A stretch of 26,018 nucleotides of DNA from a virus (IMGVR_UViG_3300006024_000023:1-26018); one strand, 5' to 3'; positions 2,440 through 26,018 are shown, counted from the first letter of the stretch. Made by a program: numbers and translations. The notes: generated from the letters alone by a model not told the origin.

Positions 2440-2561
2440 TAAAGTGTCCCATCATCCACAGATTTGTGGTAGAAAGATTTGGAGTCTGCTACCATCATCA
2501 TATCCATTATAAATCGGATCTGAGATGGTGTTAGATCAACTTGGGTAGTCTGTTCAATCAT
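2391..2561 (-). CDS. small hypothetical protein (56 aa, not in ORF track)
   Basis: Translated by hand: MIEQTTQVDLTPSQIRFIMDMMMVADSKSFYHKSVDDGTLYNQLSNCLPSRHTASN*. ATGA coupling to the methyltransferase stop. Confidence 0.65.
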   Translation of the reverse strand: MIEQTTQVDLTPSQIRFIMDMMMVADSKSFYHKSVDDGTLYNQLSNCLPSRHTASN

Positions 2562-3508
2562 AAGTGGTTCAAGATGCTTGTAGACGCTTGTAGAGGGGTC
2601 TCAGGAAGTGTATTAATTCTCTTTTGAATTAAATCACCATAATCCTCATGTAATTCACACCCAATATAATACCTATCGAGTGATTTTGCAACTGTTGCTG
2701 TTGTGCCACTGCCCATGAATGGATCAAGTACAATGTCACCCTTCTCACTACCAGCAAGGATACATGGTTTGATCAGTTCTTCAGGATACGTAGCAAAGTG
2801 TGCTCCCTTGTATGGTTTCTTGTTTACTGTCCAGACAGAGCGTTTATTGCGTTTTGTATATGATTTTGTAAGACCCGAATGCGGTTGGAGTCCTGTTCCT
2901 GGATTGTGGTACTTTCCTTTTGATCTGTCTCTTGTTCCCCAATCTTTTGCTGGTTCTTTGATTGCTTCATTGTCATAGTGGTAATACTTACTCTTACTCA
3001 AGAGAAAGATATACTCATGAGACTTTGTACATCTATCTCTTACACTCTCTGGCATAGGGTTTGGTTTATGCCATATAATATCTTGCCTTAGATACCATCC
3101 ATCCGCACGTAATGCGAATGCAAGCATCCATGGTATACCAATCAGATCCTTATCCTTATATCCTTGGAGTTTGTTGGATCTTCTTGGTGTAGTCTTAGGT
3201 AGGTCTTGTCTGTTGTTAGAGAATGTCTGCTTAGGTATGCACCCATCCTTTCTGTAATTATAGTATGAGTCACCAATGTTCAACCATAGTGTACCATCCT
3301 CCGTAAGTACATTGCGTACCTTACGGAAGACTTGTACCATCTCTTCAACATATTCTTCTGGTGATTGCTCTTGACCTATCTGGTCATCCTCACCACCATA
3401 GTCTCTTAGTCCGTAGTATGGTGGTGATGTGACGCACATCCTTGCACTCTCTGGTAAGAATGCATCAAGTGTATCACGACAGTCTCCAAATAGAATAGTG
3501 TCTTTCAT
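2558..3508 (-). CDS. DNA methyltransferase, N4-cytosine/N6-adenine family (beta-class motif order)
   Basis: Catalytic motif IV TSPPY lies N-terminal to the SAM-binding motif I DPFMGSGTT. Other family motifs are IIWHKPNPMPES, HEYIFLLSK and HFATYP. Confidence 0.93.
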   Translation of the reverse strand: MKDTILFGDCRDTLDAFLPESARMCVTSPPYYGLRDYGGEDDQIGQEQSPEEYVEEMVQVFRKVRNVLTEDGTLWLNIGDSYYNYRKDGCIPKQTFSNNRQDLPKTTPRRSNKLQGYKDKDLIGIPWMLAFALRADGWYLRQDIIWHKPNPMPESVRDRCTKSHEYIFLLSKSKYYHYDNEAIKEPAKDWGTRDRSKGKYHNPGTGLQPHSGLTKSYTKRNKRSVWTVNKKPYKGAHFATYPEELIKPCILAGSEKGDIVLDPFMGSGTTATVAKSLDRYYIGCELHEDYGDLIQKRINTLPETPLQASTSILNHL

Positions 3509-7941: not shown

Positions 7942-8877
7942 TTATAGTTCAGATTCATCAGTATAGAACTTATCCCAATCTACTGGAACAAGATCCTCAA
8001 CATGCAAATCTTTCATCAGTTGTAGAACAGTATCTGTGACTTTCCTTGAAGCAGATTCACCACGTTGAGCAAGTCTCTTTAGATTCTCTTCGTTATTATT
8101 CCAGAAATCATTACTTGCTTCACCCTGAGTCTCAACCCACTGATTAGCATCATTCTCATCCATGAATGCAGGAGCATCTGTTACTCCATCATCCAACTTA
8201 CCATTTGGATATAGTTTCCTATAGTTTGATGGGTCAATTGGGAACTTAAGTTCATGTGTATACTTAAAATACTTTAAACCTGATCCTTCAAACTGAGCAT
8301 CAGTTGGTGATGGTAATGATTTATCCCTTAACCATTGTCTCCATGCAACCCAGTCGTCTTTCTCACCTGTATACTTTTCTGTAATGTCTGGCAATACCCT
8401 CCAATCAGATAGTGATAACATATTAATTTTCTGTCTACGAAGTTTACGCCATCTCTCCTCCCAGAAAACTACTTCACTATCAATTTTGTATACTTTTTCT
8501 TCTACCTGTAGACTTTTAACTTGTTTAACAACAGTAAAGAAGTCTTTAACTTCAGTATAAAATTCTTCTGCTTGTTGCTTTGTTGCTGAGGTGAAGTTAT
8601 ATGCTCTAGGATATGATGTGTTATTAGAGAAATTGTATATAGTTTTAACTCTTTGGCAAAAATACGTGCCATCATTAAAGAACTGAATGTATTGAAGTTG
8701 ATCTTTATCACTGTGCCAGAAATCATCAACTTTAGTTTCAAAAAACTTTGTAATTAATTCTTGATCCACTTGAGTTCTTGGTACTGCTATAGCTCCTAAC
8801 CTTTCTGTATCATGATTAGAGAAACTTCCATTTATAAAATCAGCTTCAAGTAATAGTTTTCTTTCTAGAAATGCCAT
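7942..8877 (-). CDS. tail fibre assembly chaperone domain protein
   Basis: WRKLRRQKINMLSLSDWRVLPD...WVAWRQWLRD..P matches the RxxRNxLLxxSDW...D...WxxYRQxLRDxP pattern of phage tail assembly chaperones. It lies downstream of the fibre genes. Confidence 0.75.
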   Translation of the reverse strand: MAFLERKLLLEADFINGSFSNHDTERLGAIAVPRTQVDQELITKFFETKVDDFWHSDKDQLQYIQFFNDGTYFCQRVKTIYNFSNNTSYPRAYNFTSATKQQAEEFYTEVKDFFTVVKQVKSLQVEEKVYKIDSEVVFWEERWRKLRRQKINMLSLSDWRVLPDITEKYTGEKDDWVAWRQWLRDKSLPSPTDAQFEGSGLKYFKYTHELKFPIDPSNYRKLYPNGKLDDGVTDAPAFMDENDANQWVETQGEASNDFWNNNEENLKRLAQRGESASRKVTDTVLQLMKDLHVEDLVPVDWDKFYTDESEL

Positions 8878-9549: not shown

Positions 9550-12500
9550 TTAATAAGCTTTGATCATATATTTAGTCTTATGGAAAGGGTTTATTATTGG
9601 GACTTGTCGTTGTGGTCTCATTGTAACATCTGGGACTGGTTTTTTGAAGTTACTAGTCAATTTAAACTCAGCTTCTGTCATATCCATGAATATATCATTC
9701 TGTGTGAATGATACTTGAAGTGTTCCTGCAGCACCACCAGTACCAGCAGGAGAAACTGCAGTGACTCTAAGGAATGATCCGCCAAAATTAGTATTCCAAA
9801 AATCGAATGTTAGTTCATCACCAGCATTATAATTTTGTCCAGGACTGACAATTGAATTAATCCTTACTCTCGTATCACCAGTTACAACAGGAGTAGCATC
9901 TAAAGTTGGCCAAGGTGTCATAGTAACATTTAATATCATACCGTTACCTGTTCCAGACGAACCACTAGCATAAACCATATTCACATCAACAGTGACGTTA
10001 TCATCAGGATCAGTCCAATACGAATTGCTACCTGTTAAACGATATTTCCACTCACCAAGAATTGTACCTTGCCATGCAGCAGTATTCAATGCAGCAGTAT
10101 TAAGTCTGTCTGCCCAAAGTTCAAATGTTTGTAATCCTCCAGTAATACCTCCACCTAAACCAGAACCTTCAGGTGCATTTGCATTACCTAAACCTGCTAC
10201 GTTACCACCAGTGAAATCTGTGTTAGGATTAGAGAGAATAGATTCAGTAATCATATGTGAGTGTGTAAGTGTTCCTGAAATACCAGGAGAAGTATATACA
10301 TCAACTATAAATTTAGTTGGTTCTGTGTCAACAACTCCAGCTACTATTCCTGTATCAGCACCACCTGTTAGACCAGTTGATTGTAATGTTTGACCATTTA
10401 GGATAGTTGCAGGAGAAATCCACCATGTTAAGAAATCAACTACTCCTTTATCATCCTCATCCAATGGACCAAAGTCAGTTGATCCAAAACCCAACCAGTT
10501 TGTATTTGTCTCTTCGTTTACTGGGTATCCAAGATTCAGATTTTCACTGATCCAAGTATCGATATTAAAACTGTTACCAAAATATAGTTGCAATTCTACT
10601 TGGAAGGCACCGAGACTTTGTAACCAAGTTCTCCATGCATCTCCAGGAGTATCACCTTGACCCCATTCATCTTGTGTTCCAGTTATCGCAGGGTCTCCTG
10701 TTCTAAACAAAGTATTACGACCCCATGGAATACATGGGTCATTTCCATTTCCTTCTGACTCTACTGTAGCAGAAATGTATAAATGATCATGCTCTGGTGG
10801 TTTAACTATTACTTCTTGCAAAGGTCCAATCTGTGCAGTAACTATACCTTGAATACCAAATACAATATCATCAGTAACAGTTTCCAATCCTCGTAATCTT
10901 ACAGTACCAAGAGAGAAGAACTGTGAATTAAGACCTGTCTCATTTGTAGATGGTCCTTGAATCTGTTCTAGTGGTTGTACACCAAAAGAATCAACTTTAT
11001 CAAAGTACCAATATCCACCCTCAGCACCAACATCATTGAAAGTTTTACCAGCTGTAGATACAGGCAAGAATGCTGAACCACCTCTAGAAGAGTCCACTAA
11101 TCCAACACCACACAGTCTTCTGTTCCTATAATCAGGTAAGTTAAACACACCACTATATGTTACTGTACCATTAATATCTGGTACTGCAGAACCACTACCA
11201 CCATAGGTATTACCAATGACATCAAATAATGCCCAGTATTGTATAACATCAAGTTGTTGACCTTCACATGCAATAAATCCAGCATATCTACTACCAAGAG
11301 AACCATCTGTAGTACCATATGTTGAAGTAGCACCTTCCTTTAGAATAGGAATAACTGTACCAACAGGATAACCATCAAACTTCTCAGTCTTTTTACTATA
11401 CCACTTACCTAGATTAGTAGATGGTGGTGGTACAACAGCATATGTTGTTACTGTCCATGTAAATGGATTATTAATTGAACCAGTACCAACACTGATTTGT
11501 GTAAACTCTGGTGTACTTAACTGTGTAGCAGATTTAATAATAAGATTGAAACTGGTGTTAAGTGCAGGATCAAATGTTCTTGGTCCTTCTACTGGTGTAT
11601 CAAAGTCAATAGAAATCAATGCATTATATCCACCAATAGATTGAATAGTAACTGGTAGATTAATACCACTAATAGTTACAGGAGCACTAGAGATAAAAGT
11701 ATCTGGTATTTGATTAGTTTTATCTGCTGGTGGTAAGAATGCTGCATCAGTATCTGGTCCACTATTCGTTACAACAGTCCATGTTGGGATAGTTCTAGAA
11801 CCAACATTAATTTGTAATTCTTTAGGATCACCAAACAGTGTAGATGATTGTAAGTAAATGGTTAATGTATCACCATTTGTTACATCTGTTGGAAATACAC
11901 CAATAGAACCACTGTTTTTCTTAACTCTCACAAGACTAGCATCAGTAGATATAACATCTACAGGTACTGATACACCAGCACCTAGTCCAGTAATACCACC
12001 TGAGGGTTGTTCATCTGATCCAATGAGTGCATCTGCTTCAGCATTATTAACATCAGTAAAACTAAATGCATCAGGTGATGAAGATAGATTTGCTCCAGTA
12101 GTAATGGTCCACGTGGATCCACCAGAAACATCACCAATACTCAAATCTGTTGATCTTGGGGTATTTCCTGTTGCTGCTGTAAGCATTCTTATTTGTAAAT
12201 AATCACCATTACTAACAGTTCCTTGGTTAGGACTAAATGTTACACCATCTAATACATCAAAACCATCAGCATTTGTTGTAGTAGTATTAACAGATGCAAC
12301 TGCCCACTCACCAATACCAGTAAGTGAAATGTTACCAGTAGTGGTCATTCCCTGAATTCTAATAACCTCACTATATGCATATTTGTTTATAATTAGATCT
12401 TCTAAGTCAGTAAATACGGGAAATGGTATTGGTTCATTTAAAGGTAATGCTTCATTTGTTATACGCCAAGTTTCATTTGATGTACCAATAACCAGTGTAA

Positions 12501-12975
12501 GTCTAAGAACACTATTGTTTAAAGCACTGGTGGTTCCTCTAATCTGAATTTTAGCACCATTCTGTACAGTCACATTACCACTAGGTTGAATCCACCCAGT
12601 ATCCCAATTGCCATCACCATCAGTATCAATTCTCAACGACCATTTATCTGTACCACCAGCCTCATTAGAACTTAATGATATTGCTGCATCTGTTCCAGAT
12701 GATAATCCACTAACTGTAATTAAACTTTCATTTGGTCTAGTACCATCAGCATAAGTATACAAAGTATTTAATGACGCACCCTCAACAGGTATCAGTGGGA
12801 ACGGATCTGGTGAAAAGTCTTCAGCTATGGTTGAAATCAACCAAAACTGTGTAAGAGTACCAATCTGTACTGTAATAGTTTGAGTAGAACTCCACGATGG
12901 TGGTGCTTTAAACTTAAACTGAATATAATCACCCTCATCAACATATAATGGGGTATTTGAGTATGAATACGTCAT
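9550..12975 (-). CDS. tail fibre protein with N-terminal beta-sandwich-like repeats and a tail collar domain (1141 aa)
   Basis: Collar motif YPVGTVIP...GFIACEGQ...YWALFDVIGNTYGG...FNLPDYR; HxH motifs (HDH, HSH); C-terminal PFHKTKYMIKAY; about four PDxF...VxNG..IQIR...WT repeats. Confidence 0.88.
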   Translation of the reverse strand: MTYSYSNTPLYVDEGDYIQFKFKAPPSWSSTQTITVQIGTLTQFWLISTIAEDFSPDPFPLIPVEGASLNTLYTYADGTRPNESLITVSGLSSGTDAAISLSSNEAGGTDKWSLRIDTDGDGNWDTGWIQPSGNVTVQNGAKIQIRGTTSALNNSVLRLTLVIGTSNETWRITNEALPLNEPIPFPVFTDLEDLIINKYAYSEVIRIQGMTTTGNISLTGIGEWAVASVNTTTTNADGFDVLDGVTFSPNQGTVSNGDYLQIRMLTAATGNTPRSTDLSIGDVSGGSTWTITTGANLSSSPDAFSFTDVNNAEADALIGSDEQPSGGITGLGAGVSVPVDVISTDASLVRVKKNSGSIGVFPTDVTNGDTLTIYLQSSTLFGDPKELQINVGSRTIPTWTVVTNSGPDTDAAFLPPADKTNQIPDTFISSAPVTISGINLPVTIQSIGGYNALISIDFDTPVEGPRTFDPALNTSFNLIIKSATQLSTPEFTQISVGTGSINNPFTWTVTTYAVVPPPSTNLGKWYSKKTEKFDGYPVGTVIPILKEGATSTYGTTDGSLGSRYAGFIACEGQQLDVIQYWALFDVIGNTYGGSGSAVPDINGTVTYSGVFNLPDYRNRRLCGVGLVDSSRGGSAFLPVSTAGKTFNDVGAEGGYWYFDKVDSFGVQPLEQIQGPSTNETGLNSQFFSLGTVRLRGLETVTDDIVFGIQGIVTAQIGPLQEVIVKPPEHDHLYISATVESEGNGNDPCIPWGRNTLFRTGDPAITGTQDEWGQGDTPGDAWRTWLQSLGAFQVELQLYFGNSFNIDTWISENLNLGYPVNEETNTNWLGFGSTDFGPLDEDDKGVVDFLTWWISPATILNGQTLQSTGLTGGADTGIVAGVVDTEPTKFIVDVYTSPGISGTLTHSHMITESILSNPNTDFTGGNVAGLGNANAPEGSGLGGGITGGLQTFELWADRLNTAALNTAAWQGTILGEWKYRLTGSNSYWTDPDDNVTVDVNMVYASGSSGTGNGMILNVTMTPWPTLDATPVVTGDTRVRINSIVSPGQNYNAGDELTFDFWNTNFGGSFLRVTAVSPAGTGGAAGTLQVSFTQNDIFMDMTEAEFKLTSNFKKPVPDVTMRPQRQVPIINPFHKTKYMIKAY
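9569..9575 (-). promoter_or_regulatory. possible T4-like late promoter CTAAATA
   Basis: 20 nt upstream of ATG 9548; resembles the gp55-type TATAAATA box. Confidence 0.45.
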
Positions 12976-13009
12976 TCTGGGCTATACAGATATTATTCCA
13001 GTCATATTA

Positions 13010-13016
13010 TATTTAG
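13010..13016 (-). promoter_or_regulatory. T4-like late promoter CTAAATA
   Basis: Overlaps the stop of the upstream gene at the head of a 37-nt AT-rich gap before a structural gene. Confidence 0.55.
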
Positions 13017-16000
13017 ATCTCTCTCACACCGTTCCAATTGTCTTCTAGATTCTTATCTACCTGAATTGGATAGTTTGCTTTAACCTCAACTGGAATGTCA
13101 ATACCATCAACTAATATTAATTCCGACAAAACAGTTGTATCTGGTGACTCTACAGGTTCCTCATCTCTAACTTTATCATCAGATGGTGGTATTATAAAGT
13201 TGTCAGGTCTTCTATCAATTATTACTCCTGTTGTTGTGGAATCTGACGTGGTTCCACCAGCACCTTGTACTTGAATTGTCCATGATATGCTATTTGGACC
13301 AAAGTTGTTCCATGGTACACCAACAGTGCTCCAGTCAATAACACCATCTCTATCTGTTTGTCCTTGAGTACCTCCCAATTCAGATGAAGTTGCGGGATTG
13401 AGAACAACAACCGAACCAACAGTATTACTTCCATCAAGATAATAATAGGTTGGTGTTATCTGAATGGATGTAGTTGCATATTTTGTTTCATATTCGATAT
13501 CAAAATTATCATTACCGTAATTAATACTAACAGGTGAATCAATACTACATGTTGGGAATTGAGATACATTAATAGTAATACATTCAGTAGGAGAATCACC
13601 AGCAGTACCAGTTACGTAACCACAATAAGTTGTGGTATCACCAGGACATACATTTTGTTGACTAGTAAGATTCCCATTAGTAATAGTACCTTGTGTCCAT
13701 ACGAGTGTATCAGCATCACCAGTAAAGTACCACTCTATATTAGTGCATTGTCCAACAACAATACTACTTGATGGATTGGCACTAAGAAAGAATGTTGGTG
13801 GTGAGAAGACAGTAACTGAAACAGTAAGTGTAACTGTTCCTTCTGGTCCTGTAGCATTCAATGTATATGTTGTGTCCGATACTGGATTAACTGTAGTCTG
13901 AGCATAGAAGAAATTACTATCATTAGTATTAATAATACCAGGAGCAACTACAATATTATTAACATCACCAAACACGATCCATGCTAATGTAACACTTTGA
14001 CCAGATTGAATTTCTAATGTTTCAACAGCACTACCATTAGGAGCAATGATCTTAAAGTTAGCACTTGGTGGTAGAGTTTTATTATGACCTGGAATCCATC
14101 TTTCTCCACTGTTACTAGTCTCAAGAATAATATTAACACCATTAGCATTACAGTCTGCTACGAATTCATCGTAAGATGCCTGAATAGTAGCGTATACCAT
14201 ACTACCAGATATATCAATCCATAGTGATACATATGTACCCTCAGGCACATTTGCTAGATTACAAATGTCAAACCAACTAGAGGTAAAATTAACATCACCA
14301 TCATCACGTCTAACTTGAATACCACCATTTGCATATGGATCACTCAAATAGTTTGATGGCATTTTCAATCTACTGAGTGGATACCTTACACCACCATTAG
14401 ATTGTAGAACTGCTTGTAGCAACCAGAATGTTCTAAATGGGAAGTTACTACGAAAAGAAGCCCAGTCATTAAACATAGTTTGTACTGATGGAGATACCTC
14501 GTCAATAAGAGAGATACAGTTAACTAACTGAGCAAGTTGTGCATTTGAAATCTTTGCAATTAATGGTGGTTCCTCATTAGGATCATCACTATAAAATACT
14601 TCACGACTAAACTCATTACTACCATTAAATTGAAATTCTGGATTTGGATCATCTGCTGCAGCAACCTTACGCATAATAGAGTGGTTGGAATCACTACTTA
14701 CGATTCCTTCATTCTCATCAAAAGTGCTATTTCCACCAGCAGTTGTACCAATCTGTCTTACTCCCTGCCAGACATCCTGGGAATTTTTATCTACCAGTAC
14801 AGGATAATTTGCAATAATTTCTACTGGAATGTCAATGTCATCTATTAATATCTTCTCACTAAGAACTTCAGTCTCTGGTGAGATAACTGGGTCTTCGTCT
14901 ACAAATTTATCTATTGATTCTGGAATTGAAAAGTTATCAGGTTCTCTGTCTATGACAGTATCAAAATTACCAGAATCTGATGTAGTGGTAGTACCACTAA
15001 CATTTAAACTAACCGCAACTGACTCAGGTCCATAATTATTCCATGGCATAGAAATATCAACAGTACCATTTCTCTCTGTAGATGATGCTGGATCACCCAA
15101 CTCTGAAGATGTTGCTGGTGAAATATTAACAGTAGTACCAACAACTTGACTACCATCCAAATAATTATATGTTGGTGTTATTTGGATAGCATTTGTAGCA
15201 TATATTGTTTCATATCCTATGGTATAAGTAGAATCTCCATACATTACAGTTCCAAAACCAGGAAGAGTTAATGAACATGTTGGTGGTTGCAACACAGTAA
15301 CTGTAACACAAGTAGTTCCAGAACCACCACCAGGACCAAAAGCTTGAGCACAATATGTTGATGTATCACTAGGTACTACAATCTGATTACCTGTTTGATT
15401 TGTACTACTAATAGTACCAGAAGTAAAACCAAAACTGGTTGTTGGATTTACACAATACCACGAAACAGTAGACTGTTGTCCGTTAATTATAGTTGATGGA
15501 CTTGCATTAAAAACAATTTGTGGTGCATTATATGTACAACTGCCATCATCAATTGTAGCACCTGGATCATAATTATTTGCTAATGGGTCAGTACATCCTG
15601 TAGGGAGTATACAAGATCCATCATCTGTATCTGCATTTGGATTATAGTTTGTTGCTTGTGGATTGGTACACCCAAAAATAGGACAATTACCAGTTGCCAT
15701 ACCTGTATGCCTTCCATTAGTAGCAACTAGTTGTCTTTCTGTAGCACCACCATTATAGATGAATATGTATAAAGAAGTCGTATACGAACTAGAAGCACCA
15801 TTTCCACCATCAACAAAATTGTTACTTGCAGCAGTAAATCCATCATACCAATAGTTTGCACCACCTTCTTCAGCATACCTACCAAAGAATTGATCATACC
15901 AATAACTTATTTCATTAAAAACCCACGTAATAGGACGGCTAGGATCACTACTAGTACCACCTGGAAACCAAAATCTATCAGAGGATGTTGGATCTCCAGG

Positions 16001-16057
16001 AACTCCATTGGTACAAGTCTGTCCATATACGTAGTAGTGACCGTCTTGAAATGCCAT
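13013..16057 (-). CDS. virion structural / adhesin-like protein with DDGSC repeats, Ig-like domains, a vWA-like domain and an internal duplication (1014 aa)
   Basis: Two GCTxPxAxNYxPxAxxDDGSC repeats; Ig-like strands (VTLAW, TTYTLNATGPEG); MIDAS-like WIDISGSM; aa ~179-436 is homologous to aa ~754-1014. Confidence 0.85.
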   Translation of the reverse strand: MAFQDGHYYVYGQTCTNGVPGDPTSSDRFWFPGGTSSDPSRPITWVFNEISYWYDQFFGRYAEEGGANYWYDGFTAASNNFVDGGNGASSSYTTSLYIFIYNGGATERQLVATNGRHTGMATGNCPIFGCTNPQATNYNPNADTDDGSCILPTGCTDPLANNYDPGATIDDGSCTYNAPQIVFNASPSTIINGQQSTVSWYCVNPTTSFGFTSGTISSTNQTGNQIVVPSDTSTYCAQAFGPGGGSGTTCVTVTVLQPPTCSLTLPGFGTVMYGDSTYTIGYETIYATNAIQITPTYNYLDGSQVVGTTVNISPATSSELGDPASSTERNGTVDISMPWNNYGPESVAVSLNVSGTTTTSDSGNFDTVIDREPDNFSIPESIDKFVDEDPVISPETEVLSEKILIDDIDIPVEIIANYPVLVDKNSQDVWQGVRQIGTTAGGNSTFDENEGIVSSDSNHSIMRKVAAADDPNPEFQFNGSNEFSREVFYSDDPNEEPPLIAKISNAQLAQLVNCISLIDEVSPSVQTMFNDWASFRSNFPFRTFWLLQAVLQSNGGVRYPLSRLKMPSNYLSDPYANGGIQVRRDDGDVNFTSSWFDICNLANVPEGTYVSLWIDISGSMVYATIQASYDEFVADCNANGVNIILETSNSGERWIPGHNKTLPPSANFKIIAPNGSAVETLEIQSGQSVTLAWIVFGDVNNIVVAPGIINTNDSNFFYAQTTVNPVSDTTYTLNATGPEGTVTLTVSVTVFSPPTFFLSANPSSSIVVGQCTNIEWYFTGDADTLVWTQGTITNGNLTSQQNVCPGDTTTYCGYVTGTAGDSPTECITINVSQFPTCSIDSPVSINYGNDNFDIEYETKYATTSIQITPTYYYLDGSNTVGSVVVLNPATSSELGGTQGQTDRDGVIDWSTVGVPWNNFGPNSISWTIQVQGAGGTTSDSTTTGVIIDRRPDNFIIPPSDDKVRDEEPVESPDTTVLSELILVDGIDIPVEVKANYPIQVDKNLEDNWNGVREI
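15536..15673 (-). repeat. two tandem DDGSC peptide repeats
   Basis: GCTNPQATNYNPNADTDDGSC and GCTDPLANNYDPGATIDDGSC. Confidence 0.9.
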
Positions 16058-16381
16058 TTAGAATTCTACTGTACGAGTGACTAGTTTGGGTATGTCTGAT
16101 GGTTCATTAGGTATACCCACAAGAGCATAATGAATTTCTTTTAATTTCTTTGGATGACGATGAGTGAATTTACCTTTAGATCTATTTTCACCCTTAAAGT
16201 ATTCCTCTTCAACCCACTTATAATCATTATCAGCAGTTAAAAGGATCTGCAACTGCAAATCTTGATCTGGTTCTCTCTGTTTATATTCTAATTCAACAAC
16301 ACAATTACTCTCATCTGCATAAACAAATTCTAAAGATAATGGTGGTATTGGATCGAAAGATTGTTGAGATGGTTTATTCAT
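16058..16381 (-). CDS. hypothetical protein (107 aa)
   Basis: ORF fills the gap between two structural genes almost exactly (4-nt and 0-nt spacers). Confidence 0.75.
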   Translation of the reverse strand: MNKPSQQSFDPIPPLSLEFVYADESNCVVELEYKQREPDQDLQLQILLTADNDYKWVEEEYFKGENRSKGKFTHRHPKKLKEIHYALVGIPNEPSDIPKLVTRTVEF

Positions 16382-18605: not shown

Positions 18606-21600
18606 TTATACGTCTGTGAGATACCAACCAACTAAGGATGATGGTGCGCCAGGCCCTCCGTCTGGTGTGGCATTACCAGCATAAACGAGACTGAACGCTG
18701 CGTTTGGAGTCTGTACAACTAGTTCACCACCAGCTTCATATCCAACAAAGGTTGATGGTGCAATACCTGGAAGAACAGTAGTTCCAGTATTAGATGATTC
18801 ACCTTGCACCTTAACATTATCAGGTGCTCTAACAACCATACTTAAGTTGTATGATAGACTACCACTAATATCTATAATGCGAATCATATCACCCATTTCA
18901 GGTGCTGCAGGAAGTTTGATTAGAGTATTACCAGTACAGTTAACAAAGTAGTTAACATTTGCTTCAGCAAGGAATGATTCTGCCTCATAGAGCCACTTAC
19001 GTGCTCCAGTCTGGGAGAAGTAATTCTCAATTCCAGCAATCTTAACTGCACCATTGTTATCAATACCGAAGATTTCATCACCTGCAGTTGCATATGAAGT
19101 GTTCTCTCCAGCATATACTGTGAGATCTCCACCACGAATAAATGCATCACCAGTAACATCAATATCACCACCAAATGTAGATGTTCCTGTTCCAAGAGCA
19201 GAGAACGAACCATAAGTGGTAAAGTCACCAGATGAATTATTAAAGGTCAATCTTGGTGTAGTTTCATCAGTTCCGAAGATATTAATGTCACCACCGTTGA
19301 TCGTTAGATCACCAGATGCAGTATCAACTTCTAGAGTTGTTCTTAATGGGATGCCAGTTGCACCACCATTTGTTAATCTAAACCACTGCTGACCTTCGAT
19401 GGTAGAACCATTAACAGTAAAGGTATCCTCAACAGTGAGTGTTCCAGCAATAGCAGTATTACCACTATTGGAATCCATGGTGAATTTATTAAATCCAGAA
19501 CCAGCAGTAATATTACCAAAGATCTGAGTATTACCAGTTGTAGACTCAACATTGAATACAATAGCAGCAGGATCACCACCATCATTAACCTGTAAAGACT
19601 GTGGTGAAGTGCTAATTAGTTGCTCAATAGAACAGAATTCAAGTCCTGATAATCTAAAGTAGTCTTGTGTAGTAATAGTACCACCAAATTCTGCAACACC
19701 AATGTTAACATTAGCAGGGTCAGAACCAATACCAGTTAGAGGTTCATCTAATACACCGTTACCATCAAGGTCAGAACCAGTAATATATGAAGAATTAGAC
19801 TGCTTATCAAGTTTTGCTATGACACAGCTATCAGGGTGATCAGTAGCAGATGTAGTTCCATCAACTCCTCTTGTAACAATCAATCTGAAACCTTGTGGGT
19901 CATTAGGGTTACTAATGTTATCAATACCAACAACCTGAACAATTTCAGATTTAGATTCATCAGATGTGTAACCTGCAATAGGTTGACCAGTAGCATCTTG
20001 AGGACCAACCTGTCTATCAATTAAGAGAAGATCACCAAGTTGGAAATCATTAACAGATGGTGTAGTAATTGGTAGGTAGTAATTGTTACCTGCTTGGTTA
20101 ACACCATTGACTTGGAAGGTAAGGTCTCCACCGCCACCGCCACCTAATTGGGCGTCAGTGATAGTTAGAGTCTCATTGTCTGCATATCCTTCACCACCAG
20201 ACTCAATCGTAACGTCGATTGTAAAGTCAAAGCGGATAAGAATTGTAAATGCTGCACCAGCACCATTCAATGATCCAGTTGCATCAAGGAATTGATATAT
20301 GCCAGGTGTTCTTAAAGTAGAACCATTATTAACAATGTTATCAACAGATGCAATCTGACCACCACCTTGTAAGAATAGAGTTGAACCCCATGGTGCAACA
20401 CCAGCAGTATCAATTCTTCTACCAGTTGATTCATATTTGTAGAAATCAATATTTGGATTCTCTAAACCACCAATTTGATGTCCAATAGTTGATGTACCAA
20501 ACTTACCTCTTCCTATCTCAACAATACCAGCATTTAGACCACCGTCTAGTCTGATATTACCTTCAACGATTGTAGATGCAAGAACATTCAGAGTATTTCT
20601 GATTGTAGTATTACCACCAGTTGAACCTAATGTAAATTGAGTTGCATTTGTTGCGAGGTTAACAGTGTTAGTGGATGAACCATCAAATGCATTAACTTCT
20701 CTCGTTTGAGAGAATATTCTAGATGAACTTGTACCAGCTCCATAACCGTACCCAAATTCAAATTGTCCAGCAACACCAGTGTAGAATGTACCAATCTTAG
20801 TGTTTGACTTACCAGGTGAGCTAGTTGCGAAACCACCACCAAGTGTAATTTCACACTCTGAAGTAAATGACTCAGCAACAGTACCAATTACTGACTTAAA
20901 CTTAGTGGTATTTCTCGCAAAATACAGATTAGTAGTTGCTGCAGCTTCATTGATCAACCATGTTGAGGTTGGTGAAGATCCACCTATTGTATATGTCTGA
21001 GGAGAGGTCGAATTGTTCATCAGAGTCAATATCTGACCATCACCTGCCCAGTTCAGGATGTTTGCATTACTATTAACGAAGTTGAATGCAGTGTTAGTAG
21101 TAGTAATATCTCCACCATTAACTTCAATGTCAGTCATGAACATTGAATCGCCAGTGAATCTAGAATTACCAACAACAACGAAGTTTCTATCTAATTCATT
21201 CTGTGGGTTAACAGTATCCTCTATTTTAGTATTAACACCAACACGACCAGCGTTAGTGGTCATGACACGTAAAGTTGCACTATCATCAGGATCAGTGCTA
21301 TCGCCACCAACCAAGAATGCGTTATCTTCAGCAGTCTCAGTCTTATTGATAGTTGTATCTGCTAGGTAACTATTAATAGTCTTACCACTAACAAATGCAG
21401 TACCAACAACATCTAAGTTTGCTCTAGGTGTTGCCTCATCACTAGTAAATGCCTTAAGAGCAGATGGATGTTCAGTTCTTGCAACAGTGTTAACACCAAG
21501 TTTGTAATCACCAATAGTTTCAGTTTCAGTTCTAAGTGCTTCAGCACCAAGTACACCATACTCTTTCCAATTGGAGTTAGAATACTCAACTATAGGAACT

Positions 21601-24600
21601 GGATTTCCATTTGACTGAGCAGTATCAATTACACCACCAGGACCATTCCAAGATAGAACATCAATACCAATACCATTATTAACTTGGAAGTGAACATAGT
21701 TATTGGAAGAATCGAATGCATCACCATTAGGAGAGTATATTAACCATGAAGAATTCAATAATGGATTACTGAAATTAGTTAATTTAATCTGTGATACATC
21801 ACTAATACCAATCGAAGCGTTAGAAATATTATTTCCTTGTGCATCCTTGAATGTAAATTTAACTACGTTAGTACCATCAAACTCAATCGTAAAGATATTG
21901 TTTGCAGGTATTTCATTAAAGTAGTTAGCATATATCCAACCAAGTGAACCAGTCTTACCAACTTCTAGACCCTTAAGTAGAATGTCACCTGATTTTGGTT
22001 GAACACTACCATAGTCTACTCTCTGATTAGCTTCTACTCTGTTTCCACCAAGATTAATACCTGTATTAGGATCAATATTGACAAGATCATTTTGGTTAGG
22101 TGTAATATTAGAAGGCAGACCAGAGCTCGTATGTGTCTGAATCTGATACTTCTGACCCTTACCTCTAGAATTGAATCCAAATACTGCAGCATCTACTCTG
22201 TTCTTACTGATACGAATATCACCATCTAAAGGATTACCAGGTCCAGTCCATGCAGTTCTGTCTAGTCCTTCATCTTGTTGTAAGTTAGTTACAGGATCAA
22301 CAGATGATACATTAGATCTAATAATTAATGCATCTCTAGACTGAGTTAGATCATTATCCTGAACAGATACAACTAAAGGAGACTGGAATACGTTCTGAAG
22401 TGATCCATCACCACCAACAACTGTAATATTCTCATTGAATGTTACAGGGGTATCAAATGATGTAACTAGATCACCGATATCCTCATTATCATCATCACTA
22501 TCCTTAAGAACTGCTGCCTCTAAGAATGTTTCTTGACCAGTAATAGCATTAATCTTTCTATTACCGATATAAAGATCTCCATTAGAGTTTAGACCCGTGT
22601 AGAAGACGATACCAGCGTTCTGTTTCTTACTTTGGGCGTAGAAGTCCTCTGTAGGACTTAGAACAATCTCCTGACGTGCTGGAAGACCAGTTGAATAGTT
22701 ACCTGGACCAAAACCAAGATATTCAAATGTGTGGTTACCAGCTCTTGCGATAGATGGTCGTCTAAGTTCAACATAATACTTCTGATCTACAAGAACTGTG
22801 CTATCACCAGAAATCGGTATTCTACGATCTTCAGATCCTGAAGTTGCATTACCAGGAAGTGCTCTAATAGCAGTTGTGCCCTCATAATCATTTTCAATAA
22901 ATGCTGGTTGTATAATAAAGTCTTCGACAAGTTCTCTTGTTACAGAGTTCTTGTAATCGTTAGTTCTAACTAGACCATGAGTATAGTTATCAGCAGCAGA
23001 ATATGTTGCTGGTGGATCAATTAATTGTTGTTTAACATTCTTCTCTTCTGCAGTTGTACCTGCCTTTTGGAACCAAAGAGGATCGTTCTTATAGTTCAGA
23101 GGATAGAGACTGCTAACTGGTTGAGAGAACTGGAAGTCACGGAAGTTACCACCTGCACCAGCACCTTGAGGTAATGGTGAAATGTTACCACGCAGACAAG
23201 ATAGGTAGTAAATACCATCTTGCTGACCTGAAATTCTCTTCTGTAGTGTCTCGTAGTTAAAGATGTAGAATGTATCTTCGATAATACCAGTATCTTCAAC
23301 ACTAGCAACATAATATTCAACACCTGCACTATCCTGAATCCTATCACCAGGAGTAATGGTGTAAACATTAGAACCATTTTGTCTATAATAATACTCAGGA
23401 TATCCCTTCTTAATAAGAGTCTTGAGTGGTAGGGATTTACCCATATCCTGATCCTCAAGCATATCAGCAAATGTGCTACCTTGAGTAAATCTAGTGTTAT
23501 AAAACTCTGAGAACTCTAATTTTCCGCCGCGAATATTTTTCAGAATTAGGTAATGTGAACCCGCATTTTCGTAATACCCATGGATATTTGCAATACCTGA
23601 AGAGTTACCAGTCCATTCGACCTGGTTAGCAGTGATACTAGCAGTCTTATTGACTACCCAATCACCGCCTTGTGGTGCATTAATCTGAACTGTAGTAAAC
23701 TGCTCATTCTTAAGACCAGGGAAGTTCTTAATATCAACTGTGTGATCAACCAGATCAAGTTCTAGATAACTAATAGTTTGAACTAATGGATCTTGTACAT
23801 AACGAGCAGATTGAATGGTTGCTTGAATACCAGAATTGAATCTGGCATATGCCTTGTACTCAATACCTTGTCCAGTGGTATCATTCTTATAAGGATCATA
23901 TGCATCTTCTTCATTTAATCCATTACCAAGGAATTGATTTGAATTGTAACCAATGTATTCACCAGCTTGTACTGGGTTCTCAAAACGAGCACCATATACT
24001 TCACCAGCAACAGGTTTTAGTAGAACTTTCTGTGGTACTAACTTACGTGTATCGTCAGTTCTTGTCTTGATAACAAATCCATTGATAGGATCTCTTGCGT
24101 TCTCAAGATAAGAAGGAATAACATAACGTAGTTTATATGTTCTGTCATCTGCAGGACGACTATCATCGAGACGTGTGAACCATGTATCAGTAGTCTTAGG
24201 TCTATCAGAGTAATCGTCTTGTTTTATTCTCCAAATAATATTTTTCTTCCTAATTCCTACTGAAATATTTGTTGATGCTTCATCAACACAATTAACATAC
24301 CACTTACCTTCAGTAGCAATACCAACACTAAATGTTGGGTCATACTTTACAGGTGAACGACGTTTGTTACAGAATACATTAAATTCATCAGTTTGTCCAG
24401 CAGTAAATTGAATAGGATCAGCATTGTTGATCGCATCAGCATGTGTCTTATGAATTGTAAAGACTCTAGCAGTTTGATAACGTGCATAGAATTCCTTAAC
24501 TGGATTCAATCTACCAAAGTTATCATCATTAATATCAGTGGTAGTAACTTCTGGATTATCATCTTCTTGCTCACCTATAGTTGGTAGATCATCTGGTGCA

Positions 24601-26018
24601 AGTGATCTGAAGAATACTTTGTGTGGTGTTACAGAAGAGAATGGTACATCAAAGATGTGTGGAACATCTGTTCTAATACCAGCGTTAACTGTTCCATCAA
24701 GTACACACTTATAACGATGTAAATCATAATCTTCATCAAGTATAAACTGATAGATGTCAATCTCTACATTAGGATCGATGCTATCAGCTTCAGATGCATA
24801 GATGAAGATACCTGCTGCTGCATTCTCTCTAGAGGTTGCAAGCATCAGTTTTGTCTGATCACTACCATTAAAGAATGTAGTGTTAGAGTAATCAAATGGT
24901 TGTGTCTTTCTACCTGGTGCAATTACATAGTAAGTTTGGTTAGTTTCAAATCCATCAGGTAATCTGATAAGACGCTTATCAACATCAACATACTTACCAA
25001 GATCAACATCAAAACGAGGACGTGGGACCAGTCTAACTGGTGTTCCAGTTTCAAATTGATGTGGGTTGGATCCACCATAACCAGAGGTATTAATAGTAAA
25101 TACTGTTCCTCTTTGTGAGAAGAGAGATACATTTGCTGTCTGCTCTTGTCTAGTGACAGCACCAGGACCAGAGTTAATAATTGTATTGATGTTACTAACT
25201 AATGTCTCAATTGCATTTACAGTACCAGCACACTCTCTGATCTGCTGTCCAACATTAGGATCAGCGGGATCGGTGATGATATTACCAGTAGTTGTATCAG
25301 CAATAATATCTGGACTAATACTTTCAGGACCAACGATAACTGTCTTAGGAAGTGTGTCTGCCCACTGACCTTTAGGGTAGTCAAAGAACAGATCAATAGT
25401 TCCACTAGACTGTAGTGCGTTTATAGTCTGACCGAAGTCAAGTCTAGAATTCTCTACACCAAGTTCAATCTCTGTATTGTTAATAATTCTCTTAACATAT
25501 ACATTCTGGGGGATTGTAGTGTAGACAGCAGTTGAACCTGTTTGTAGAACACCGTTAACATATGCAGGAGCAGAAGGATCAGTATCATCATACTCAGTTA
25601 CTGTCATACCAATGATGATACCACGAGTATCACCAACATCAACAACTGCTGATCCAGCAGTAGTTGAACAATTATATGCAAGGAAATCGAAGTTCCTCAT
25701 GGCAGCAGTTGCCATCTGTCCAACGTAGTTCCATGCATCTAGAGTTTCAGTCTTCTCACTATCAATGAAGGCTAGACTATTACCTACGTAATATGCTTCA
25801 CCAGCCTGTACAGAGTTGATGTTACCACCAAGTCTAAGGTCACCAACAATAGCATCAACAATGTATGCAACGTCACGATAACATGTAGATACTTCAGCAT
25901 CATTGGTAAAGGATCCTTTATTAAGAACAGGTAATAGAGATAGATTACTTACTTTGAATGCATCAACAGCGATATCAAATAGGTTCTCAATACTACTACG
26001 AACGTTAGCACAATCATA
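18606..26018 (-). CDS. giant virion structural / tail fibre-like protein, 5'-truncated by the window (at least 2470 aa)
   Basis: Read by hand, the frame has no stop from 26018 to the track's ATG at 25715 (YDCANVRSSIENLFD...WNYVGQMATAAMR). It is G/T/N/S-rich, with GGD[IL]/GxLTV fibre repeats, a GxGY module and a C-terminal YFVN..LP...GD.I.IID...LVY...GW fibre domain. Confidence 0.9.
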   Translation of the reverse strand, partial: YDCANVRSSIENLFDIAVDAFKVSNLSLLPVLNKGSFTNDAEVSTCYRDVAYIVDAIVGDLRLGGNINSVQAGEAYYVGNSLAFIDSEKTETLDAWNYVGQMATAAMRNFDFLAYNCSTTAGSAVVDVGDTRGIIIGMTVTEYDDTDPSAPAYVNGVLQTGSTAVYTTIPQNVYVKRIINNTEIELGVENSRLDFGQTINALQSSGTIDLFFDYPKGQWADTLPKTVIVGPESISPDIIADTTTGNIITDPADPNVGQQIRECAGTVNAIETLVSNINTIINSGPGAVTRQEQTANVSLFSQRGTVFTINTSGYGGSNPHQFETGTPVRLVPRPRFDVDLGKYVDVDKRLIRLPDGFETNQTYYVIAPGRKTQPFDYSNTTFFNGSDQTKLMLATSRENAAAGIFIYASEADSIDPNVEIDIYQFILDEDYDLHRYKCVLDGTVNAGIRTDVPHIFDVPFSSVTPHKVFFRSLAPDDLPTIGEQEDDNPEVTTTDINDDNFGRLNPVKEFYARYQTARVFTIHKTHADAINNADPIQFTAGQTDEFNVFCNKRRSPVKYDPTFSVGIATEGKWYVNCVDEASTNISVGIRKKNIIWRIKQDDYSDRPKTTDTWFTRLDDSRPADDRTYKLRYVIPSYLENARDPINGFVIKTRTDDTRKLVPQKVLLKPVAGEVYGARFENPVQAGEYIGYNSNQFLGNGLNEEDAYDPYKNDTTGQGIEYKAYARFNSGIQATIQSARYVQDPLVQTISYLELDLVDHTVDIKNFPGLKNEQFTTVQINAPQGGDWVVNKTASITANQVEWTGNSSGIANIHGYYENAGSHYLILKNIRGGKLEFSEFYNTRFTQGSTFADMLEDQDMGKSLPLKTLIKKGYPEYYYRQNGSNVYTITPGDRIQDSAGVEYYVASVEDTGIIEDTFYIFNYETLQKRISGQQDGIYYLSCLRGNISPLPQGAGAGGNFRDFQFSQPVSSLYPLNYKNDPLWFQKAGTTAEEKNVKQQLIDPPATYSAADNYTHGLVRTNDYKNSVTRELVEDFIIQPAFIENDYEGTTAIRALPGNATSGSEDRRIPISGDSTVLVDQKYYVELRRPSIARAGNHTFEYLGFGPGNYSTGLPARQEIVLSPTEDFYAQSKKQNAGIVFYTGLNSNGDLYIGNRKINAITGQETFLEAAVLKDSDDDNEDIGDLVTSFDTPVTFNENITVVGGDGSLQNVFQSPLVVSVQDNDLTQSRDALIIRSNVSSVDPVTNLQQDEGLDRTAWTGPGNPLDGDIRISKNRVDAAVFGFNSRGKGQKYQIQTHTSSGLPSNITPNQNDLVNIDPNTGINLGGNRVEANQRVDYGSVQPKSGDILLKGLEVGKTGSLGWIYANYFNEIPANNIFTIEFDGTNVVKFTFKDAQGNNISNASIGISDVSQIKLTNFSNPLLNSSWLIYSPNGDAFDSSNNYVHFQVNNGIGIDVLSWNGPGGVIDTAQSNGNPVPIVEYSNSNWKEYGVLGAEALRTETETIGDYKLGVNTVARTEHPSALKAFTSDEATPRANLDVVGTAFVSGKTINSYLADTTINKTETAEDNAFLVGGDSTDPDDSATLRVMTTNAGRVGVNTKIEDTVNPQNELDRNFVVVGNSRFTGDSMFMTDIEVNGGDITTTNTAFNFVNSNANILNWAGDGQILTLMNNSTSPQTYTIGGSSPTSTWLINEAAATTNLYFARNTTKFKSVIGTVAESFTSECEITLGGGFATSSPGKSNTKIGTFYTGVAGQFEFGYGYGAGTSSSRIFSQTREVNAFDGSSTNTVNLATNATQFTLGSTGGNTTIRNTLNVLASTIVEGNIRLDGGLNAGIVEIGRGKFGTSTIGHQIGGLENPNIDFYKYESTGRRIDTAGVAPWGSTLFLQGGGQIASVDNIVNNGSTLRTPGIYQFLDATGSLNGAGAAFTILIRFDFTIDVTIESGGEGYADNETLTITDAQLGGGGGGDLTFQVNGVNQAGNNYYLPITTPSVNDFQLGDLLLIDRQVGPQDATGQPIAGYTSDESKSEIVQVVGIDNISNPNDPQGFRLIVTRGVDGTTSATDHPDSCVIAKLDKQSNSSYITGSDLDGNGVLDEPLTGIGSDPANVNIGVAEFGGTITTQDYFRLSGLEFCSIEQLISTSPQSLQVNDGGDPAAIVFNVESTTGNTQIFGNITAGSGFNKFTMDSNSGNTAIAGTLTVEDTFTVNGSTIEGQQWFRLTNGGATGIPLRTTLEVDTASGDLTINGGDINIFGTDETTPRLTFNNSSGDFTTYGSFSALGTGTSTFGGDIDVTGDAFIRGGDLTVYAGENTSYATAGDEIFGIDNNGAVKIAGIENYFSQTGARKWLYEAESFLAEANVNYFVNCTGNTLIKLPAAPEMGDMIRIIDISGSLSYNLSMVVRAPDNVKVQGESSNTGTTVLPGIAPSTFVGYEAGGELVVQTPNAAFSLVYAGNATPDGGPGAPSSLVGWYLTDV

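Follow-up and report, generated by a model that had tools for sequence, protein, structure and literature searches.

Why should a single protein domain be encoded in two adjacent genes of a phage tail locus, and could its two pieces join two virion proteins? This question is raised by the viral sequence IMGVR_UViG_3300006024_000023:1-26018, a stretch of 26,018 nucleotides (nt; hereafter the window) that is part of a T4-like marine cyanophage record estimated as 13% complete. Two open reading frames (ORFs) on its minus strand, one for a fibre of 1141 residues (9550..12975) and the other for a protein of 1014 residues (13013..16057), are separated by 37 nt, which is not a multiple of three. An earlier note, made from the sequence alone, had pointed to this out-of-frame gap and to a late-promoter-like box at the junction, and both were confirmed (CTAAATA at 13010-13016). 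Here we report that the division of a repeat domain between the two genes is conserved in S-PM2-like cyanophages. An immunoglobulin (Ig)-like repeat is divided into two complementary pieces; the first half (the plug) closes each head module, and the second half (the socket) opens the collar fibre.

A fibre repeat divided between two genes

The fibre was analysed with a repeat profile of 116 positions, made solely from the intact repeats (339) that 93 distinct fibres contain. Four whole repeats were detected, at residues 50-175, 176-295, 298-404 and 403-511 (80-104 bits), followed by a collar domain (PF07484, E 3.4e-9) whose 36.9 bits lie above the family cut-off of 24. Ahead of these repeats, residues 6-49 match profile positions 70-114 (18 bits, E 9e-7), i.e., a second half alone, which bears out the four repeats and the N-terminal orphan half described previously. 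All the sockets of the family (75/75) match the repeat profile, against 1/75 after shuffling; 12/75 reversed sockets also matched, at other positions. In a profile-profile comparison, socket and repeat were related with a probability of 96.8% (E 2.5e-10), and the hydropathy pattern of the socket follows that of the repeat (rho 0.67, versus 0.37 when shifted).

The plug corresponds to the first half of the repeat. Among 224 distinct plugs of the family, 135 match the repeat profile at E<1e-3, with a median span of positions 6-64, whereas such matches were found for only 1/224 shuffled plugs, 0/224 reversed plugs and 1/219 of the preceding segments. Over 44 columns the hydropathy pattern of the plug tracks that of the repeat with a rho of 0.77, as compared with at most 0.34 when shifted. 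The first half at the end of the upstream protein, described earlier, was confirmed; what had been overlooked is a second, internal plug at residues 368-436, because of which the 1014-residue protein is read as two fused head modules. Its layout consists of module 1 (tip, Ig-like stalk and plug), a linker and module 2 (tip, Ig-like stalk and plug). The tip of module 2 is putatively VWA-like, in view of its DxSGS motif; no Pfam or Atlas match was found for this part. The linker of about 70 residues that follows the internal plug (14543-14749, minus strand) is Gly/Ser-rich and then acidic. Fused heads in loci L005, L006, L017, L066 and L072 show the same succession of an internal plug and a Gly/Ser/Pro-rich-to-acidic linker, which spans roughly 50-80 residues and in many cases contains a GGNS or GSS motif.

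The same repeat is present in the bacterial surface proteins P0111, P0114 and P0117, and intact copies occur in L029:9356-13393 (S-SCSM1), a 1345-residue virion protein of a more distant cyanophage. The bacterial proteins contain whole repeats, in arrays that start and end in the first-plus-second register, as in the fibre; therefore, the alternative register (second half followed by first half) was rejected. No Pfam family covers the repeat, and in the Atlas it falls in unnamed clusters only. Sequence searches of the PDB with the repeat arm, the collar region and the head end revealed no relative; a chain of 123 residues that matched the arm (E 0.00026) spans a repeat boundary and was treated as a chance hit.

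Conservation of the split and diversity of the heads

With the fibre N-terminus as query, 52 phage records were matched, 49 of them across at least 80% of its length; the plug was found at 149 places in 49 records, and the two accession lists, compared by reading, agree. An ORF census of 211 sequences (210 loci and the window, redundancy included) yielded 374 ORFs with a plug, 194 with a socket and none with both halves, so that the split point proved to be conserved among the relatives. From 225 distinct plugs, 190 end at most three residues from the stop codon, four end within 4-35 residues of it, 29 are internal and two lie in cut ORFs; likewise, 75 of 76 sockets start at the initial Met. 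A search of 1.84 billion representatives gave 183 matches; of the 150 that were listed, 147 have their last plug at most five residues from the C-terminus. The earlier note had taken the arrangement for a stable one and not a fresh break, and the same split was indeed found in cultured phages and in independent contigs; for this reason a sequencing error is excluded.

Head and fibre genes are 0-60 nt apart at 65 of 71 distinct junctions and 420-660 nt apart at the other six, and the sequence TAAATA is present at 68 of them. In PMC2984593, NATAAATA is given as the late promoter of S-PM2. In a few genomes the last head and the fibre are separated by an unrelated gene (L041:5003-5602, L042:9376-9972 and L079:9547-9972), hence adjacency is not required. 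The number of plugs was counted in 79 distinct complete arrays, reduced to 51 after collapsing at 90%: three plugs occur in 31 arrays, two in 13, four in 4, one in 2 and six in 1. Three plugs are retained where heads are fused into one ORF (L006 and L072).

Variable N-termini of the upstream proteins had been anticipated, and they were found, with 17 classes of head tips above a stalk that is conserved. In a comparison of 143 head modules, the stalk (taken as the last 270 residues) aligns in 10015 of 10153 pairs and the remainder (the payload) in 1328; within an array the tips generally differ, since a tip class is repeated in only 4 of 49 multi-head arrays. The fibre arms of L018 and L072 are 95% identical, and their head sets differ. 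A scan of 23 head modules placed PA14 above the cut-off in two and I-set in one, most of them having none. The head of L232, a locus with the fused form described below, and a window-type head of L130 have in common a domain of about 110 residues with 61% identity, which suggests exchange between lineages.

Plugs resemble each other more inside a genome than across genomes. For 49 of the 51 arrays (two were dropped for short fibres), plug likeness was 63% within a genome (137 pairs) versus 47% for heads that have the same tip and belong to different genomes (1425 pairs), whereas the neighbouring Ig domain showed 35% within and 31% between genomes. Plugs were closer to those of their own genome in 119 of 131 cases, as compared with 84/131 and 90/131 for two stalk domains.

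Other cut points and fused forms

In the window type, the repeat is cut between about positions 64 and 70 of the profile. A different cut, between about position 103 and the last strand, was found in Sf-CH1b and in 12 of 18 related loci; here the heads end in four repeats, the last one stopping at profile 101-103, and the collar protein opens with the missing strand. These loci have two or three heads where they are long enough. This last-strand pattern opens 21 of 52 homologues, and none of 20 such head ends holds the strand; in 6 of the 18 loci related to Sf-CH1b no match to the repeat or to the strand at the start was obtained. A third cut, after the first strands (about 28-31 on the head side and 29-30 on the fibre side), characterizes L229/L230, which are identical in sequence, and L231, with three heads each. 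The head ends of L229 and L231 match profile 5-31 in 6/6 cases and the fibre starts at 29-30; in the control, 2 of 300 shuffles scored as high, none at that place.

Fused versions, which the earlier note proposed to look for, do exist. Twelve loci were examined, of which five (L232, L234, L239, L240 and L241) have the full upstream order, the others being cut by contig ends; in these five a single ORF comprises a head, four whole repeats and the collar, and there are no separate heads. Likewise, P0087 fuses a head like module 2 of the window (40%, E 3e-59) to a fibre like that of the window (43%, E 9e-166); in both P0087 and P0085 the head is followed by repeats 2-4 and then by the collar. The search for a locus of P0087 gave no result. 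In P0110, about 300 residues are inserted between profile positions 68 and 70, the site at which the window repeat is cut. This insertion (residues 250-558, in repeat 2) has a GHSQG motif, putatively alpha/beta-hydrolase-like, and belongs to a cluster of 21 members. P0161 was considered as a fourth cut point and rejected as a mis-called start within a fused ORF.

A tree of the collar region included 64 of 72 candidates (one was unmatched and seven were thinned), and its root is not established. The last-strand, first-strand and fused groups are each supported as a single clade; the window type was not obtained as a clade of its own, and P0085/P0087 fall inside it with modest support. From this tree it is likely that the cuts arose separately. 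The collar proteins P0158-P0160 also form their own clade and seem to begin beyond the last strand; they may have a mis-called start or a further architecture.

Predicted structures

The model of fibre residues 1-522 shows four all-beta domains with a predicted local distance difference test (pLDDT) value of about 90. Residues 1-50 have values of 54-82 and strands in the final hairpin alone, whereas the corresponding part of repeat 1 has two strands more. For the C-terminal 190 residues of the head protein, the model is confident over the Ig domain (90-98), while the terminal plug (55-87) has only two strands of three residues. Intact repeats are thus predicted to be beta-sandwiches and each fragment alone to lack its sheets; independent folding of the fragments, which would have spoken against a joint, was not seen. 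A fold search returned generic tandem Ig-like arrays with 8-12% identity and a template modelling score of at most 0.29; the viral matches were orthologues and unnamed Ig arrays.

An assembly model and its alternatives

It is proposed that plug and socket fold together into one domain and in this way clip the heads onto the fibre. We consider this co-folding likely; that several different heads are docked on the same fibre through such fold complementation also seems likely, judging from the comparative data and the models. T4 gp12 is a trimer. The fibre would probably be a trimer too, with three sockets, so that with a split gene different heads could sit on one fibre, where the fused form carries one kind. 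Any head of a genome would fit, because its plugs are kept alike. The two linker-joined heads of the window would fill two sockets, either tethered or after cleavage. Alongside the collar needles, the heads would probably contribute binding to the host surface, and they could be gained, lost or exchanged; this putative binding is somewhat favoured over its absence. A wider scenario is plausible, although we place it a little short of an even chance: cyanophages would have cut one Ig-like repeat at least three times, at different strands, and so turned a one-head fibre into a hub for unlike heads, with virions of one genotype bearing mixed, combinatorial adhesin sets and fused polyproteins being processed or tethered to fill neighbouring sockets.

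Changes recorded in phage S-PM2d in chemostat culture bear on the role of the heads. Their positions, as listed in PMC9910659, were mapped here (the ORF labels differ by one between two supplements). The first head has an in-frame insertion at codon 73, which reached 83% in chemostat 3, and the second a frameshift at codon 300 of 560, which rose to 92-95% in chemostat 2; point changes are located between the two HxH motifs, both in the 449-residue collar protein and in the fibre (PMC9910659). Three of the changes restore the GenBank codon and may represent standing variation. These data fit heads that are dispensable accessories, the collar needles being host-facing too.

Several observations weigh against the proposed docking of host-binding heads. 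The terminal plug of the window, taken alone, scores only 2.7 bits against the repeat profile (E 0.053), which is not significant; in profile-profile comparison plug and repeat reach 20% probability (E 0.0012), and the score against repeats 1 and 2 is no better than with shuffled columns. Plug and socket are both acidic (median net charge -12 and -3), and P0158-P0160 appear to start without any strand. The poor folding of the fragments in a single-chain model is weak evidence. Likeness of plugs within a genome may also be due to gene conversion or common ancestry, and the pairs compared are not independent. Three plugs are absent from 20 of the 51 arrays, and a sugar-binding family (PA14) is above cut-off in only 2 of the 23 modules scanned. 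The frameshift in S-PM2d removes one plug, and its rise indicates that the second head is not needed on that host; the point changes, for their part, fall in the collar proteins.

The same joint could operate with another stoichiometry, i.e., the three collar proteins would form a 1:1:1 heterotrimer with one socket per unit, and the heads would be spread over baseplate positions. In favour of it, a collar, a pair of HxH motifs and a similar C-terminal end are common to all three proteins, two of the three lack the arm, and arrays of four and six plugs exist; on the other hand, three plugs are the most frequent number and are kept in fused-head ORFs, and both arrays with the first-strand cut are also three-headed. 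We regard this as a serious possibility on the minority side, a judgement that concerns the stoichiometry alone. Another alternative is that the joint is real and the heads are a stalk, a spacer or a decoration, with host binding left to the collar needles. The S-PM2d point changes in two collar proteins, the tolerated head frameshift and the lack of a binding family other than Ig above cut-off in 21 of the 23 heads agree with it. Against it stand the 17 tip classes, which are seldom repeated within an array and differ between phages with 95% identical fibres, the occurrence of PA14 and the rise of an in-frame insertion in a head tip; this alternative is unlikely.

It could also be argued that the halves no longer meet, the plug having become a separate docking module (for itself or for another virion protein) while sockets pair among the fibre chains. 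The strong divergence of the plug from the repeat and its very acidic character speak for this, but plug and socket are found together in the same 49 phage records, the hydropathy of the core is kept, and both pieces shift together when the cut moves, which makes this idea quite improbable. Finally, the fact that the two ORFs of the window are adjacent and out of frame might be attributed to an assembly error, a fresh pseudogene or a single chain bridged by recoding. This is scarcely credible, given that the split is shared by cultured phages and many contigs with variable spacing at the junction, that the fibre gene has its own promoter box, and that most plugs end genes that do not adjoin the fibre.

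Comparison with known systems

Joints of this type are already known, and the system of the window appears to be a member of none of those compared here. One is part of the baseplate tripod of Lactococcus phage Tuc2009, where a C-terminal hairpin of BppU completes the sheet of the C-terminal sandwich of BppA (PMC4742702); there, and putatively here, an accessory binding protein ends in an incomplete beta-sandwich that is completed by an extension of the virion scaffold. The complementary pieces and the single-chain models are in line with such a joint. In Tuc2009 the hairpin serves one accessory protein, whereas in the cyanophages the cut falls in a repeat belonging to the array of the fibre itself and the piece comes from the fibre N-terminus, and there are one to six different heads per socket type, three cut points and fused forms. 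No homology to BppU or BppA was detected in either alignment against the PDB sequences with E up to 1.

The earlier note had compared the docking of the head to donor-strand exchange in pilins. In chaperone-usher pili, an Ig-like fold short of strands is made whole by the N-terminus of the following chain, and tip adhesins are attached in this way (PMC10104325). The comparative tests that the note had proposed came out in favour of its docking idea, and the Sf-CH1b-type cut, affecting the last strand only, has the donor-strand geometry; nevertheless, the window type supplies about 45 residues instead of one strand, its plug covers about profile 6-64 of 116 and so is not a fold short of the last strand alone, as a pilin acceptor is, and an array of several heads replaces the pair first envisaged. 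A polymer is not expected, unlike in pili, because no ORF holds both donor and acceptor. No pilus chaperone or usher family was found among the 13 window proteins scanned, in a record that is 13% complete, and no pilin appears among the listed fold matches.

The tailspike complexes of the Ackermannviridae (CBA120 TSP1-4, with gp10-like XD domains) also bring together, on a single scaffold, several exchangeable receptor-binding proteins whose docking ends are conserved (PMC11721090). There, folded XD3 and TD1 domains dock in a fixed order and trimeric beta-helix spikes are anchored by their N-termini (PMC11721090), whereas here Ig-stalked heads would putatively dock by the C-terminus through a split-fold joint; sequence searches of the PDB and a fold search revealed no XD2/XD3 or TD1 domains in the fibre arm or the head ends. 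The nozzle of phage A1002 is likewise a tail protein encoded in two genes (gp39/gp42) and made whole through strand complementation, although it is a one-to-one core nozzle with a beta-propeller and not an array of alternative heads (PMC13730344). The collar domain itself is like that of the T4 gp12-like short tail fibre and the PF07484 family. The window genes are orthologous to annotated S-PM2 genes, p226 with p223-p225, whose records carry only the names short tail fibre and virion structural protein and leave the split repeat unannotated. No published account of this split was found in the open literature, subscription papers and bioRxiv supplements lying outside the search, and the available parts of PMC2984593 and PMC3037559 do not mention it.

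Other features of the locus

The genes follow each other on the minus strand in the order giant tail protein, collar proteins of 452 and 295 residues, an ORF of 107 residues, head, fibre, 2-oxoglutarate (2OG) oxygenase and chaperone-like gene (Table 1). The same order is annotated in S-PM2, Syn1, S-CAM1/3/4, ACG-2014e/i/j, S-RIM44, S-H9-2 and two Sf phages, and the position of the 295-residue protein is kept in the annotated relatives examined. The giant protein is probably cut by the end of the window and is a possible candidate for the anchor; its C-terminus gave weak matches alone, to a fibre chain (E 0.0017) and a tailspike chain (E 0.32). The 107-residue ORF (16058-16381, minus strand) precedes the head gene, has no Pfam or PHROG match, and has similar ORFs in L001 and L166; the single head of L189 opens with a stretch that possibly resembles it, and it could be a detached head tip. 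A tryptophan halogenase family gene (PF04820; 5344-6468, minus strand) lies near 2OG oxygenases and a DNA methylase (2558-3508), all of which are ordinary cyanophage cargo.

Table 1. Features of the split-repeat locus and of its surroundings (window coordinates)
Feature	Position	Strand	Remarks
Tail assembly chaperone-like gene	7942..8877	-	PHROG 4697 E 5e-103; conserved downstream of fibre
Collar domain (residues 565-604) and C-terminal part of fibre, HxH motifs at 729 and 905	9550..11409	-	PF07484; PHROG 4924
Four intact Ig-like fibre repeats	11443..12828	-	Repeat profile; all-beta model
Socket (fibre residues 1-50), second half of repeat alone	12826..12975	-	Profile 70-114
Late-promoter-like box CTAAATA	13010..13016	-	Overlaps head stop codon, upstream of fibre
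Head polyprotein, 1014 residues	13013..16057	-	PHROG 29022/2155/9770, virion structural protein
Terminal plug (C-terminal 70 residues of head), first repeat half alone	13016..13225	-	Family match at about profile 6-64
Internal plug (residues 368-436), closing first head module	14750..14959	-	E 1.9e-32 to plug profile
Tail collar protein, 295 residues	16386..17273	-	PHROG 4714; two HxH motifs, no N-terminal arm
Tail collar protein, 452 residues	17273..18631	-	PF07484 E 2.6e-12; PHROG 4591; two HxH motifs
Giant tail protein upstream of collar genes	18606..25715	-	PHROG 4527 from profile position 1544

Implications for cyanophage tails

The host-recognition parts of model cyanophages such as S-PM2 and Syn1 are poorly known, and the proposed joint provides a testable assembly rule and a role for virion proteins of these phages that have lacked an explanation. 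It would explain how different heads are carried per fibre without dedicated adaptor proteins. The natural split-domain pairs of these phages are on offer for studies of protein assembly, and the series formed by the fused repeat, the first-strand cut, the half cut and the last-strand cut would be a natural record of how joints of the donor-strand type arise by gene fission.

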